64,000 nucleotides of DNA, taken from positions 1 through 64,000 of the IMG/VR virus record IMGVR_UViG_3300021387_000535; one strand, 5' to 3'. Shown in pieces: positions 1-46,775 of this stretch; position 1 is the first letter of the stretch; each line of letters begins with the position of its first letter. A program made the translations under genes and the position numbers. This stretch comes from a virus. Lineage: Duplodnaviria; Caudoviricetes. The notes below the pieces were generated by a model, which saw nothing but the letters and a program-made list of their open reading frames with translations, had not been told where the DNA came from and ran no database searches.

Positions 1-393
1 ATGAACAAGGCACATATAAGACTACTCAAAGAGAACTACGAGAATGCTTGCAACGAATACCTAATGGCTTTCTGCTATCAATATGAACTTCAATGCGAGG
101 AAGATGCTTGGGTGGCAGGCGACGTAGGCACTATCGCATTGATAGGCGATTACTATATTGACTTTCAGAACATGATGTATATGCTCGACAATGGTGTTGC
201 GTTCGAGGAGTGGCTACGGTGGTATGACTATAGTCTTGATGCACATGACCTTGGACTTGATGTTCCAAACTTCCCATCATGGTACAAAGGATGCCCAAGA
301 CTGTCGGAAGAGCAAATACAGGAAATCAAAGACAAACGTCGAGAACTGAAAGAACTTATAGATTCGTACAAGAAGAACCAAAACGTATTTTAG
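1..393 (+). CDS. Hypothetical phage protein (may be 5'-truncated by the window)
   Basis: 130-aa ORF, co-oriented with downstream genes; no recognised motif. Confidence 0.6.
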   Translation: MNKAHIRLLKENYENACNEYLMAFCYQYELQCEEDAWVAGDVGTIALIGDYYIDFQNMMYMLDNGVAFEEWLRWYDYSLDAHDLGLDVPNFPSWYKGCPRLSEEQIQEIKDKRRELKELIDSYKKNQNVF

Positions 394-42501: not shown

Positions 42502-42677
42502 AAATTTGCTATTTCGTTGTCAATTTCAATAATTGTTTTCTTAGCAAGCGAAACCGCAGCATCAAGAATTATCCCGTTGCTTGTAAATATCGTAAAGTCG
42601 CTAACGTATATAAAGTTCGCAAGTTGTTCCCTACGTTTTATAAGCGCATTATATTTTTGAACTTGTTGCTCTGTCAT
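42498..42677 (-). CDS. Small 59-aa protein (not in ORF track)
   Basis: MTEQQVQKYNALIKRREQL...; ATGA-type overlaps at both ends. Confidence 0.55.
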   Translation of the reverse strand: MTEQQVQKYNALIKRREQLANFIYVSDFTIFTSNGIILDAAVSLAKKTIIEIDNEIANL

Positions 42678-43534
42678 TGCTTCTTGTATTTTTCGCTAAT
42701 TATACAGGGGATAGCGTTTTCCCATTTAATTCTATGGTGTAATCTTTGAATATGACTACCCATTGGTGCGATTTGAACACATGATGGTGCAACCATAACT
42801 GTATAAAATGATTTAACATAAGTCCCAACATCTTTGTAAAGTTCCGTTATACCTCCCTTGTTTTGTTGTGTATCTGCTTGGTCTAATTGAAACGGCAAAT
42901 AAGTAAGGAAAATATCTCCAGTTGCTCCAAGACCAACATAAGTATTTACAACTTCATTAAGAATACCCCTAAACGAAAATGGTCTATTTGTTAGGCAAAT
43001 AAAACTATTCATTGCTTTACGTTTCCAAATTACAGTTTCGTCATAACCGCCTATATGGTCTCCACCTTGACTAAAAGCGATAGTTTTTACATTTTCATTT
43101 GTGTTTAATAAAAACTCAACAAACCATCTAATTATAAGATTATAAGAACAAGTTTTTTTTGCACGTTCTTTGCGATGATGCCCAAAATAATAATAATCGT
43201 CATCCAATTCTTGAAAATAATCATATCCCAATTCCCTTGCTATATCAAAACACACATTTCTTGCAAATAAAATTGCATTTCTCTTTCCAAAATTATTCAT
43301 GGAATCTACATGTCTTGATGTTTCAAGTTTGTCAAATACATAAACATTTTCTTTTCCGTATTCATTGTAATACTCGTTTATTGTAGAATCTTCGTTATCA
43401 CAAACCACAATTATTCTACCAGTATATCCACAAGAACGCAGTAAATCATAAGTATCTCTAAGATGTGGTCTTCCGTGTGAAAGTATAAAAACCACAAATT
43501 TTCTAAAATCCATTTTAAGCAAGTTCGAGTTCAT
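42674..43534 (-). CDS. GREB1-like / TET-associated glycosyltransferase (TAGT, GT-A fold)
   Basis: ILSHGRP, VCDNED, ARN.CFDIA.ELGY.YF.ELDDDY (DxD), AFSQGGD, GGITELY..GTYVKSFY.VM..PS, HH.I.W motifs. Confidence 0.8.
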   Translation of the reverse strand: MNSNLLKMDFRKFVVFILSHGRPHLRDTYDLLRSCGYTGRIIVVCDNEDSTINEYYNEYGKENVYVFDKLETSRHVDSMNNFGKRNAILFARNVCFDIARELGYDYFQELDDDYYYFGHHRKERAKKTCSYNLIIRWFVEFLLNTNENVKTIAFSQGGDHIGGYDETVIWKRKAMNSFICLTNRPFSFRGILNEVVNTYVGLGATGDIFLTYLPFQLDQADTQQNKGGITELYKDVGTYVKSFYTVMVAPSCVQIAPMGSHIQRLHHRIKWENAIPCIISEKYKKQ

Positions 43535-43913
43535 ATAATTTCTTCATTTTATCATTCAACGAAACAAAACCTAATTCAATAGCCTTATCAAAATCTATTA
43601 TCACAAGTGCAAGTTTTTCCATAAGTTCTTGCATTTCGCTGCTTGCGCTTGCGTAATAATCGGCTATTGACTCATAATTAAATTCAATAAACCTTGAAGC
43701 AGCCCTTTGCAAAAATATCTTTTCCTGCTGTGTTATATTAGCATTCTCTATTTGCCTAATAAGCCTCAGATATTTTTGGTCGTCATAACAAGCGTGAATA
43801 TTCCCCCCATTTTCTCTTGGTGTATAAATTGGGGTTTGTACTTTGCGAGAATATTTCTTTTCGGTATCGCTTAATTCAATTTTTTCGTAGCCAAATAAAT
43901 CTTGTTGTTTCAT
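43515..43913 (-). CDS. TAGT-linked partner protein
   Basis: YS.K...PIY.P, FL..AA.R...FNY..IADYYA, MEKLALVIIDFDKAIE.GFV motif recalled from phage genes adjacent to TAGT. Confidence 0.65.
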   Translation of the reverse strand: MKQQDLFGYEKIELSDTEKKYSRKVQTPIYTPRENGGNIHACYDDQKYLRLIRQIENANITQQEKIFLQRAASRFIEFNYESIADYYASASSEMQELMEKLALVIIDFDKAIELGFVSLNDKMKKLYELELA

Positions 43914-43925
43914 AGCTTTATATTT

Positions 43926-44804
43926 TTATATTTTATTCCACATTTTGTTATTACTATCCCAAACAATAAAACCGCCACCATTTCCAAGAAACACCTTTGC
44001 GCCGTTAGGACGGTTTTCATCGGTATATCCATCCGAAACATGGCCATAGTACATTCCAACATAAACATAGCAATTAAAGTAATCGCTCCATGATAAAGCA
44101 CCGTCGCATATTGGCGTGTATTCGTCCGTTTTTATATCCTCACCAACGGTAACGTATAATTCCCATGCACGTTGTTTGCCAAGATAGGTTTGTAGCATCT
44201 TTGGTTCTGGAAAGAATTTCTTTTGTGCTTTTGCTTGATTACGTGCCTTTGTTTCGCGTTGTACGGCCAATTCAAGATACGGCAATACTTTTTGCCAATC
44301 CTTATGTCGTTTGGTAAAATCTTTATATTCCGTATCAATGCCACGCGACTTTCCTCCCATTTTCTTGTATGCGGAAACAAACTCGGCAAACTTTTCTTTA
44401 TATTCTTTTTCTTCTTTCTTTATTTCTTTATCAAAGATATTCTTAGTATTACGAATAATATTATTATTAGTATTTATTTGTGATTGATTATCCACATTAA
44501 GGTTTTCCATATTTGGGTTTTCGTAAAAAGTATAGTCGTTTCCTAAAATCATTCCCTTTTCGTTTCTATTAGTTACAACCTTGCAATATCCGCGTTCTTT
44601 AAGTTCATCTATTGCAGAATAAACGGCGGTTGTTCCTTCCTTAATAGTCGCACAAATCCCCTTTATTGAAAAATCCCAATTTTCTGGTAAAGACAAAATA
44701 GTAGCCAACAATCCCTTCGCTTTCAATGATAGTTCTTTGTCGCGCAAGAACACGTTGGATATTGTCGTGTAATTGGCATTTTTAATTCTTGTTACTTTGT
44801 TCAT
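43926..44804 (-). CDS. Phage replication initiator (N-terminal winged HTH)
   Basis: NYTTISN..LRDKELSLKAKGLL..ILSLP..WDFS...ELKERGY motif. Confidence 0.8.
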   Translation of the reverse strand: MNKVTRIKNANYTTISNVFLRDKELSLKAKGLLATILSLPENWDFSIKGICATIKEGTTAVYSAIDELKERGYCKVVTNRNEKGMILGNDYTFYENPNMENLNVDNQSQINTNNNIIRNTKNIFDKEIKKEEKEYKEKFAEFVSAYKKMGGKSRGIDTEYKDFTKRHKDWQKVLPYLELAVQRETKARNQAKAQKKFFPEPKMLQTYLGKQRAWELYVTVGEDIKTDEYTPICDGALSWSDYFNCYVYVGMYYGHVSDGYTDENRPNGAKVFLGNGGGFIVWDSNNKMWNKI

Positions 44805-44826
44805 ATAGCAGTTTTATTAAAAACCT

Positions 44827-44936
44827 AATGGGCAATACTACTCGTTGCTGCTATTCAACTTTCATATCGCCCATTTCGGCAAAAATAGTTATAACTTTAT
44901 ATCTTTACGTCTTTGCGTCTAAATAGCAGACAACGC
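44827..44936 (-). ncRNA. Putative cis-regulatory leader RNA with complementary loops (rep)
   Basis: Two hairpins; loop AAUAGCAG complementary to CUGCUAUU; second hairpin followed by a U-run. Confidence 0.55.
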
Positions 44937-44958
44937 ATCAACGATTAAATTCTTTGTG

Positions 44959-44990
44959 CAAAGATAACACATCTAACCTATATATGCAAA
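44959..44990 (-). promoter_or_regulatory. Bacteroidetes promoter for the replication operon
   Basis: TTTG-N20-TATCTTTG. Confidence 0.8.
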
Positions 44991-45003
44991 TTTTTAACCT
45001 ACA

Positions 45004-45747
45004 TTAACCAAATAGGCTCGTTTGCACTATGGTTTGCCCGTTTTTATCTTTTATAATGCCGTGGCATAACCTTTCAAATCGCTCATTGCCCTTGTTAAAA
45101 TATAGCGGCTCTACCTCGCAACCCACATAATCAAAACCCATCTTATAGGCGGCAACCCTACTCGATTGGCTACCCATCATAGGGTCGAATATCAAATCAC
45201 CATCATTGGCATAGTTCTTCAATATCCACGCATACAAATCGACTGGCTTTTGCGTGGGATGGAAACGAACATCATCCTTCGTGCTTTGTTGCCTAAACTC
45301 GACAATCTTTGCATTGCCTTGGAACGACGTCCAAGCATACTCACACATCGCCATAGAGAAATTCTCTGGTATGTGCTTCTTCCATACTAAAAAACATCGC
45401 GTAGGCGGCATGCCGCTAAAATAATTAGCACCCCATATAATCTGGTTCTTGCTAACACGGAATAATTGCTCAAAGAACTCATCACTAGGCGTTTTATCCC
45501 ACTCGTTAATGTCAATGGAAACGCCATCGATATTGCGATAACGATTAAAACGCCCCTTGTGGAAACGACCGCCCTTGATGAATGCTTCACTATTGTCATG
45601 CGAGTACGGAGGGTCAGCTATCGCCAAATCAAAGTAATCGTCTTTTAGTGTGCGCATAAAAGTTACACAGTCAACATTATAAACATCCGACTTAATTTCT
45701 TTCTTCGTATTTCCATTCATATCCTTTGTGATGTTTTCTTTTTCCAT
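45004..45747 (-). CDS. DNA amino-methyltransferase (beta class, m6A/m4C)
   Basis: IADPPY (motif IV), HPTQKP, DPMMGSQSS (variant motif I); start may be 45720. Confidence 0.88.
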   Translation of the reverse strand: MEKENITKDMNGNTKKEIKSDVYNVDCVTFMRTLKDDYFDLAIADPPYSHDNSEAFIKGGRFHKGRFNRYRNIDGVSIDINEWDKTPSDEFFEQLFRVSKNQIIWGANYFSGMPPTRCFLVWKKHIPENFSMAMCEYAWTSFQGNAKIVEFRQQSTKDDVRFHPTQKPVDLYAWILKNYANDGDLIFDPMMGSQSSRVAAYKMGFDYVGCEVEPLYFNKGNERFERLCHGIIKDKNGQTIVQTSLFG

Positions 45748-46180
45748 TACAACATTTTGCTATTAGTTGGTTGGTGAAACCGTCTTTTTCCGCTTCTCTC
45801 GCAGAGCGATAACGCTTTATAACAACTCCGTTGAGTAACCTTTCAACGGGTCGCTCACGTTTGTTTAATCCATTTCTATATGCGTGTATTAAATTCTCGC
45901 TATAAGTACACCATTCGAGATTGTCAACGCGGTTATTTTGCTTGTCCCCATCTTTGTGATTTATACACGGATATATGTTTGGATTTTGTATAAAATGTTC
46001 AGCCACAATTCTGTGTATATTATAAGTTCTACCATCAATTTTCACATTTAGATAGCCACTCTTTTGTAGTTGAGGGATAATTTTCCTGCCGCTACGCAAA
46101 GAATAAACATTCCCGAAACTACTTATGCGGTATCTATCCTCAAAGTTTTTTATAGGTAGCCATTTTTCAGTATCTATCAT
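45692..46180 (-). CDS. NUMOD4-HNH homing endonuclease
   Basis: WLPIKNFEDRYRISSFGNV (NUMOD4); IHRIVAEHF, INHKDGDKQNNRVDNLEWCT..EN (HNH); NUMOD1-like tail. Confidence 0.92.
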   Translation of the reverse strand: MIDTEKWLPIKNFEDRYRISSFGNVYSLRSGRKIIPQLQKSGYLNVKIDGRTYNIHRIVAEHFIQNPNIYPCINHKDGDKQNNRVDNLEWCTYSENLIHAYRNGLNKRERPVERLLNGVVIKRYRSAREAEKDGFTNQLIAKCCNGKRKHHKGYEWKYEERN

Positions 46181-46186
46181 TGTTTT

Positions 46187-46280
46187 ATAAAAAAATCCCC
46201 AAGTGTTCAGAGTATGGGTCGAGCATACACCTACTTACAAGGGAATTAAGTATTTCTATTCGGATTCTCGACCAATCCAA
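46187..46280 (-). ncRNA. Putative kissing-loop leader RNA (HNH)
   Basis: Hairpin loops GGUCGAG and CUCGACC are exactly complementary; second hairpin followed by U7. Confidence 0.6.
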
Positions 46281-46294
46281 TCAACTTTCTTATG

Positions 46295-46326
46295 CAAAGG
46301 TACTAATAATTCCGCATATAGCCAAA
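46295..46326 (-). promoter_or_regulatory. Bacteroidetes promoter for the HNH gene
   Basis: TTTG-N20-TACCTTTG. Confidence 0.78.
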
Positions 46327-46345
46327 CGAACAAATTGCATTTTAC

Positions 46346-46399
46346 TTATATTTGCAAAACGAAATCAATATTGTAAACTTCACTTCTTAATTCTTTCAT
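46346..46399 (-). pseudogene. Orphaned 5' end of a methyltransferase gene
   Basis: MKELRSEVYNID matches KEIKSDVYNVD at the methyltransferase N-terminus. Confidence 0.65.
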
Positions 46400-46775
46400 C
46401 TTTCTTTTGTTTCGCTGCATACAACATCGCACTAACCTTGGAATAAATACCAACGTGCCGTAGCTTCTTTATCTTATCAAAATCACCGTCATCATTCGCT
46501 TGACGATAAGACTTACAAAGCATCTTTGGGACATCCAAACGCGATATTCGCTCATCATCACACAAACGACTCAACATGCTTACTTCTTTCTCCGTCGCCA
46601 CACACTCTCCGCGCATGTTGTCGGATATGATGCCATCAAGCCAAGTACCTAAACCGTGCTTCGTCGCCATGTGCCGCAGCCGTGATAGATAACTACGGCA
46701 CATGGCTTGAAGAGATTCGTTACGAAGATAATCCATAAAACCCTCTTTTGCTTTCGTAAACGAACATAACATCAT
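46380..46775 (-). CDS. Hypothetical protein
   Basis: Operon context. Confidence 0.6.
   Translation of the reverse strand: MMLCSFTKAKEGFMDYLRNESLQAMCRSYLSRLRHMATKHGLGTWLDGIISDNMRGECVATEKEVSMLSRLCDDERISRLDVPKMLCKSYRQANDDGDFDKIKKLRHVGIYSKVSAMLYAAKQKKDERIKK

Follow-up and report, generated by a model that had tools for sequence, protein, structure and literature searches.

A structured RNA leader with covarying loop sequences ahead of the replication initiator gene of uncultured Bacteroidota phages

What does the gap upstream of a phage replication initiator gene encode, and could it control how much initiator is made? The question is raised by a virus record (IMGVR_UViG_3300021387_000535), a 72.9-kb virus contig that is 92% complete and whose first 64,000 nucleotides were analysed here (the window). 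Two minus-strand genes, one for a DNA methylase and the other, rep, for a replication initiator / helicase-loader-like protein, are separated by a 199-nt gap (44805-45003) that holds the leader studied here. Downstream of rep, the same strand carries genes for a ParB-like protein, a TAGT glycosyltransferase and a DnaB-like helicase. An earlier reading made from the letters alone (the sequence-only reading) had placed in this gap a promoter and two hairpins with complementary loops, and had proposed an RNA-only attenuator whose loop sets an immunity or incompatibility group. We find that the leader has its own promoter, complementary hairpin loops that covary, and a U-run ahead of the gene. It is a real folded RNA that is absent from catalogues, and its source is a gut/rumen Bacteroidota phage.

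A tyrosine integrase had no match in the 92%-complete 72.9-kb genome, so lysogenic immunity is an unlikely role for the leader. The relative G003 (85 kb), which carries the same leader, has direct terminal repeats. On these two grounds the phage group looks virulent. The genes for the TET-associated glycosyltransferase (TAGT) and the small ParB-like protein occupy 42674-43913, between rep and the DnaB-like helicase gene, and the order rep, ParB-like, TAGT, DnaB-like helicase recurs in relatives L214 and L215.

We take the rep leader to be a structured regulatory RNA, ~125-130 nt long and read from the rep-sense strand (Table 1). Its promoter fits the Bacteroidota consensus and not that of sigma-70, and transcription probably starts near 44950-44953. 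Both promoter boxes are kept in most homologous leaders. The TTTG/TAnnTTTG promoter is missing in some relatives, among them L086 (1-110), L119, L146 and L212 (388-456), which carry a G+C-rich hairpin just upstream of the leader instead; there, the leader must be transcribed from elsewhere.

Table 1. Positions of the features discussed, in the window unless a relative is named.
Feature	Position	Strand	Description
DNA methylase gene	45004-45747	minus	upstream neighbour of the leader
Promoter, Bacteroidota type	44959-44990	minus	-33 TTTG 44987-44990; -7 box TAtcTTTG (TAnnTTTG) 44959-44966; 20 nt apart
Hairpin H1	44908-44943	minus	upper stem 44914-44937 (6 bp); lower stem 44908-44911 with 44940-44943 (4 bp); small internal loop; 12-nt loop
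Site 1	44923-44929	minus	sense 7-mer CUGCUAU(U) in the H1 loop (sequence)
Linker palindrome	44887-44896	minus	perfect, 10 nt; between H1 and H2
Hairpin H2	44824-44879	minus	2-bp base and 12-bp outer stem, GAA/AGUA internal loop, 4-bp inner stem, 8-nt apical loop
H2 internal loop	44860-44863 and 44839-44843	minus	GAA 44861-44863, AGUA 44839-44842; highly conserved
Anti-site	44848-44854	minus	antisense 7-mer AUAGCAG in the H2 apical loop; complementary to sites 1 and 3
U-run	44819-44823	minus	U5, directly 3' of the H2 base
Site 3	44805-44811	minus	second sense CUGCUAU; adjoins the rep start codon
rep ATG	44802-44804	minus	14 nt past the U-run
rep	43926-44804	minus	292 aa, gene under control; Pfam HTH_36; PHROG: replication initiation protein, DnaD-like helicase loader
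Second leader	46187-46326	minus	before a NUMOD4/HNH gene; promoter, H1 loop GGUCGAG, long terminator-like hairpin with loop CUCGACC, U7, ATG
Divergent rep-leader family member	L165:2063-2172	minus	42.9 bits (model R1); loops GCUCUAC/GUAGAGC; two-site only; before a 175-aa NUMOD4/HNH gene
Inserted HNH genes	L213:105-653; L220:77-598		between leader and rep
Inserted weak GIY-YIG-like gene	L086:256-696		between leader and rep
Further inserted homing-endonuclease-like genes	L104; L165:104-544		between leader and rep

Hairpin H1 (MFE -10.1 kcal/mol) presents site 1 in its loop. Hairpin H2 is branched and terminator-like (MFE -21.3 kcal/mol) with a CC/GG base, and its 8-nt apical loop, AAUAGCAG at 44848-44855, is the exact complement of the H1-loop motif. 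A stretch of at least UUU after H2 is near-invariant across leaders, and the U-run is weak in some relatives. H2 was not called by a simple terminator scan; the 'loop' of the branched hairpin exceeds the limit of the scan. The CUGCUAU 7-mer has four occurrences in the 64-kb window, counting both strands, three of them in this leader, which exceeds chance. A search of the window for further targets of the antisense loop returned a single extra 7-mer (72-78, plus strand), which is within chance.

These elements bear out the sequence-only reading on the promoter at 44959-44990, which is of the Bacteroidota type, and on both hairpins: the first, claimed at 44915-44936, comprises the upper stem at 44914-44937 and a lower stem besides, and the second, claimed at 44827-44875, spans 44824-44879 with an exactly complementary loop. 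RNAalifold finds each hairpin independently. The rep ATG does come after the U-run, at a counted 14 nt in place of the approximate 20 nt given before. Site 3 (44805-44811), the palindrome (44887-44896) and the conserved GAA/AGUA internal loop had been missed.

In the consensus of the loop E or bulged-G (sarcin-ricin-like) motif, AGUA of one strand faces GAA of the other. By its letters, the H2 internal loop matches this consensus. Across 22 leaders, each GAA and AGUA letter is either invariant or conserved to at least 90%, and these positions supply several of the few invariant alignment columns; no part of the leader is better conserved than this internal loop. A similar AGUA/GAA pair, with the strands swapped, is found in H2 of the second leader of the window, the one before an HNH gene.

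As a single sequence, the leader folds modestly better than its shuffles (z = -2.1), and the case for structure is thus built on relatives. More than 1000 relatives of Rep are present in metagenomes. Leaders were gathered by Rep-alignment scans of viral, metagenome and genome contigs, supplemented with one DNA pattern scan and single-protein look-ups, and ~30 distinct homologous leaders were recognised with nhmmer and a covariance model built in this analysis. Conservation of the leader often exceeds that of the gene downstream, and it precedes Reps that are just 28-31% identical to the window Rep. The Rep family is itself a mosaic, as seen in the window Rep and in L100, L119, L121, L124, L146, L164 and L005: the C-terminal domain is conserved and is fused to N-terminal domains of at least six unrelated kinds, with the same leader ahead of every one. 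The kinds of N-terminal domain include HTH_36/DnaD_N and DUF6291, and some are without a Pfam match.

Unguided, RNAalifold recovers the H1 upper stem and the two H2 stems from 22 leaders, with compensatory changes in 19 of 22 pairs. The proposed structure pairs 94.8% of the cells in this set, a value that none of 500 shuffles reaches, and sliding the 3' partner by 1-3 columns lowers pairing to 33-51%. In a covariance-model alignment of 30 leaders, 95.5% of cells pair, and both sides have changed in 34 of the 35 pairs. This includes all six upper-stem and all four lower-stem pairs of H1 as well as all 18 pairs of H2, where 98-99% of cells are paired. The stems contain 75 G.U (~14% of cells, 75/550) against 6 A.C. 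Such an excess of G.U shows that the helices form as RNA on the rep-sense strand, and not on the opposite strand or as a symmetric DNA cruciform.

The two hairpin loops are tied together even more strictly. Site 1 is the reverse complement of the H2-loop 7-mer in 22/22 and then in 29/29 distinct leaders, and the helix between the loops is Watson-Crick in 203/203 cells (29 distinct leaders; 154/154 in the 22-leader set), with six of seven pairs covarying. Compensatory loop changes across homologs had been named beforehand as a test of the sequence-only reading, and these are the changes observed. G.U never occurs in this helix, which could hint at a constraint beyond simple RNA pairing.

Two further elements were tried as parts of the leader and rejected. 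A candidate leader peptide would come from a 13-codon ORF, the only short one, that begins in the 5' arm of H1; several leaders lack its ATG or have acquired an early stop. For an antiterminator, the 5' side of H1 would pair with the 3' inner stem of H2, and the extended pairing seen in the window is not kept in L124 and others.

The sense 7-mer recurs at the start codon as site 3. In 21 of 22 leaders, this copy is exact and 0-4 nt separate it from the ATG; the remaining leader (L104) has 6/7 letters. Across all leaders, the distance from the start codon is 0-5 nt, and once 12 nt (L212). The spacing between site 3 and the foot of H2 is 10-15 nt, and L212 holds it despite the 12 nt that separate its site 3 from the ATG. 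In 26 of the 27 three-site leaders, site 3 covaries with site 1 and the anti-site; among the leaders added later, site 3 pairs via a G.U wobble in L222 and is shifted by one base in L223. The alignments show one antisense loop that could pair with either of two identical partners, the H1 loop or the rep initiation region.

Other leaders have two sites. The second leader of the window, before the NUMOD4/HNH gene, has the same design and an unrelated sequence, and carries neither a third copy nor a palindrome. The window contains 12 strict promoter motifs, and loop-loop 7-mers occur at two leaders only, those of rep and the HNH gene. The 85-kb phage behind L165, in which the divergent family member is likewise two-site, has two two-site leaders, both before HNH genes. 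Two-site leaders also precede rep-like genes in L168 (contigs binned with a Bacteroidales genome) and L181 (a Prevotellaceae genome bin). From these relatives without site 3, we conclude that the conserved core is the kissing of H1 and H2 and not the masking of the start codon; site 3 and the palindrome are therefore additions in the rep leaders of this phage group.

The leaders fall into ~10 loop types. Predicted cognate duplexes have energies of -9.6 to -14 kcal/mol, and most non-cognate pairs of types are weak, many of them near zero. The window type and the L100 type are predicted to be orthogonal (-0.3 and -1.5 kcal/mol), and their scaffolds are 93.8% identical outside the sites while 4/7 letters differ at every site. 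Conversely, scaffolds that are very different carry the same few types. The Reps of L119 and L100 are 55% identical with closely similar N-terminal domains, and their loop types differ; the Reps of the window and L119 are 28% identical, and their loop type is shared. Iterons or operators would be expected to track the DNA-binding domain of their cognate protein. In these protein comparisons, the loop type does not follow the DNA-binding domain of Rep, which speaks against co-evolving protein-binding sites on DNA. Antisense-controlled plasmids and P1/P7 use nucleic-acid codes that are under pressure to diversify, and the pattern argues for the loops being a nucleic-acid code under such diversifying pressure. 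Specificity types on near-identical scaffolds fit the proposal that the loop sets an incompatibility group; immunity, in its lysogenic sense, is unlikely in a genome with no integrase match.

We favour an antisense switch encoded on the same strand, akin to P4 CI or P1 c4, that would gate rep, and put this family of mechanisms at a probability of roughly 60%. Most likely, the leader gates initiator synthesis in a type-specific way. The H2 loop would alternate between site 1, in a kissing complex with H1 as a decoy, and site 3 at the start codon. In Bacteroidota, Shine-Dalgarno pairing plays a small part and the initiation region has to be open, so masking through site 3 would matter. Pairing there, in cis or by a free short RNA, would cover the ribosome landing region and turn initiator synthesis off, and pairing with site 1 would tie up the antisense loop. 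H1 may be a decoy or a second target with an effect of its own on what happens at H2. H2 and its U-run probably end most transcripts, which would yield an abundant short leader RNA. This RNA would accumulate with gene dosage and could reach site 1 and site 3 of new transcripts in trans. The outcome would be a dosage-dependent negative feedback on Rep, with the loop letters defining specificity types that are blind to one another. Within the antisense-switch reading, we give trans action about even odds. The RNA-only attenuator of the sequence-only reading is sustained in its RNA structure and covariation; pure attenuation is not, as site 3 likely shifts control to the initiation of rep translation.

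Several points weigh against the antisense switch. In a free short RNA, the intramolecular kiss of H1 and H2 would hide the antisense loop and complicate trans action. The two-site leaders call for an account in which the start codon plays no part, and some leaders (L086, L119, L146) are without a promoter. In public data, two RNA runs contain short pieces of relatives, and one 187-nt contig spans 44732-44922; these are assembled contigs and uninformative on ends, strand and level.

A fold that acts in cis alone would account for part of the evidence. The kiss between H1 and H2 would then shape or stabilise the leader, for example by tuning the efficiency of the terminator or shielding the 5' end from nucleases, with site 3 as a cis partner and no role for a trans RNA or for loop specificity. 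It agrees with the two-site leaders of the same design that precede homing-endonuclease genes with no copy at the start codon, and the narrow spacing of 10-15 nt between site 3 and the H2 foot, kept even in L212, fits the geometry of a fold-back. We nevertheless regard it as somewhat unlikely, because scaffolds that are 93.8% identical differ at 4/7 letters in all three sites and the same few types sit on very different scaffolds; rapid, coordinated switching of this kind is expected of determinants that are read in trans, not of the neutral drift of a cis contact. It is improbable that the H2 loop instead activates rep by forming a pseudoknot with the start-codon sequence, the H1 loop being a competing inhibitor. 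In IncI-alpha, IncB and IncL-M plasmids, a hairpin loop does pair beside the rep initiation region, and its letters define incompatibility groups, so the topology is alike. In those plasmids, translation is switched on by the pseudoknot and inhibited by a counter-transcript of the other strand, and a leader peptide is required. In the rep leader, no leader peptide is kept, since several leaders have lost the ATG that lies in the 5' arm of H1, and no antisense, plus-strand Bacteroidota promoter motif is present. Site 3 moreover lies at -1 to -12 of the ATG, inside the ribosome footprint, where a helix should block, and neither the MFE nor the consensus folds contain a hairpin over the start codon that would need opening.

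The 7-mers could also act as DNA. Two direct copies and one inverted copy, together with the palindrome, would in that case be operators or iterons of Rep or of a phage repressor that covary with the specificity of the protein. Autoregulatory sites and origins often sit directly upstream of initiator genes, and this region lies directly 5' of one; a perfect palindrome stands among the repeats, and those in the H1 and H2 loops are always exact Watson-Crick copies, never G.U. The copies fall, however, precisely in the loops of two covarying hairpins whose G.U:A.C ratio is 75:6 on one strand, and the motif type is uncoupled from the N-terminal DNA-binding domain of Rep. The deviations at site 3 are compatible with RNA pairing (the G.U of L222, the register shift of L223 and the 6/7 letters of L104), and the palindrome varies in sequence while its symmetry stays, which suits nucleic-acid pairing better than a fixed protein site. 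Sites of this sort therefore appear highly improbable to us.

The linker palindrome invites a reading of its own. It is found at a length of at least 8 nt (8-16 nt) in 27/27 three-site leaders, approximately midway between site 1 and the anti-site, and is absent from three two-site leaders. At least eight sequence variants exist, with compensating changes at mirrored positions. Shuffles of single sequences give p values of 0.002-0.24, which is weakly significant in AT-rich sequence, so the argument is the symmetry kept through differing sequences. We speculate, while judging it unlikely, that the leader is a self-addressed RNA dosage sensor in which two copies pair in antiparallel orientation and dimer formation depends on the concentration of the RNA, and through it on phage genome copy number. 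Three symmetric contacts would hold such a dimer, namely H1 loop with H2 loop twice and the self-complementary palindrome, and on dimerisation would depend the availability of the antisense loop for covering the rep start codon. If true, the letters of loop and palindrome would amount to an incompatibility code, written in RNA alone, among virulent Bacteroidota phages that co-infect.

The antisense switch that we favour has relatives in kind among enterobacterial elements. The CI RNA of P4 pairs with seqA upstream and seqC downstream of itself and shuts off the replication genes (PMC4825925). As with P4 CI (seqB), the rep leader has an antisense element on the same strand, in the untranslated leader of a replication operon, and control would be by RNA only. 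In both, complementary sites flank the antisense element on the same transcript, one upstream and one downstream. Site 1, the anti-site and site 3 stand in this order before rep, all of them covarying, which is the P4 CI-type layout. P4 differs in acting by premature transcription termination in the prophage state, and its CI RNA is cut out of the transcript by RNases. Unlike in P4, a terminator-like hairpin here presents the antisense letters in its apical loop, the downstream site adjoins the start codon and no integrase was found; there is also no homology to CI in sequence or structure.

The c4 RNA of P1 and P7 offers a second comparison. In work attributed to Citron and Schuster (1990, 1992), this antisense RNA is reportedly co-transcribed with its target, which is said to overlap the ribosome binding region of the next gene, with similar upstream sites, a1 and b1. 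A few letters in the c4 loops are likewise said to decide P1 versus P7 heteroimmunity. The c4 RNA represses Ant (PMC8546580). The rep leader resembles it in its co-transcribed antisense element, a candidate target at the initiation region of the next gene and a specificity that would reside in loop letters. In contrast, c4 has two loops, is a processed RNA of 77 nt and controls an antirepressor instead of an initiator. For IsrK of Gifsy-1, one promoter yields both a short terminated RNA and a read-through mRNA, with the short RNA acting in trans on the long one (PMC4825925). IsrK differs in activating translation of its target, and has no homology to the rep leader and no three-site design.

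Comparisons with collections of known RNAs and phages returned no relative of the leader. Rfam 15, scanned with cmscan at E values up to 10 over 43500-46500 and 44790-44995, gave no hit to the C4 clan (C4 RF01695, c4-2, c4-a1b1). All hits were at chance level and to unrelated eukaryotic and Xanthomonas families, scoring 14-19 bits against gathering scores of 40-70. A sensitive DNA search with the leader had no match in 50,697 deposited phage records. No such leader is present upstream in the cultured Bacteroides phages BK649P1 and VA7, whose Rep N-terminal domain is 55-59% identical and where the model gave noise only, with filters off; overall, no cultured carrier was found. Full-text literature searches likewise returned no description of such a leader. 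The analogy with P4 CI and P1 C4 drawn by the sequence-only reading is brought closer by site 3 at the start codon, and does not extend to a match with the C4 clan of Rfam. The leader is a known kind of control in a new build, with no membership in the C4 or CI families.

RNA-only antisense control of phage replication genes from the same strand has few known models, which are enterobacterial (P4, P1/P7). The same logic would be assembled here from unrelated parts, in uncultured gut and rumen phages of Bacteroidota. The ~10 loop types on otherwise similar scaffolds amount to a natural 'mutagenesis series' and predict which phages cross-regulate. If the loops act in trans, incompatibility or exclusion groups could structure phage co-infection in the gut. 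The compact design with orthogonal loops could also serve gene control in Bacteroides.

The leader has further neighbours in homing-endonuclease-like genes. In L165, another HNH gene follows a close homologue of the HNH leader of the window, and the loops of the two leaders are the same. In several relatives of the rep leader, homing-endonuclease-like genes are inserted exactly between leader and rep (Table 1), and site 3 then precedes the inserted gene. Capture of the start-codon site by an endonuclease insertion suggests that mobile genes exploit the switch.
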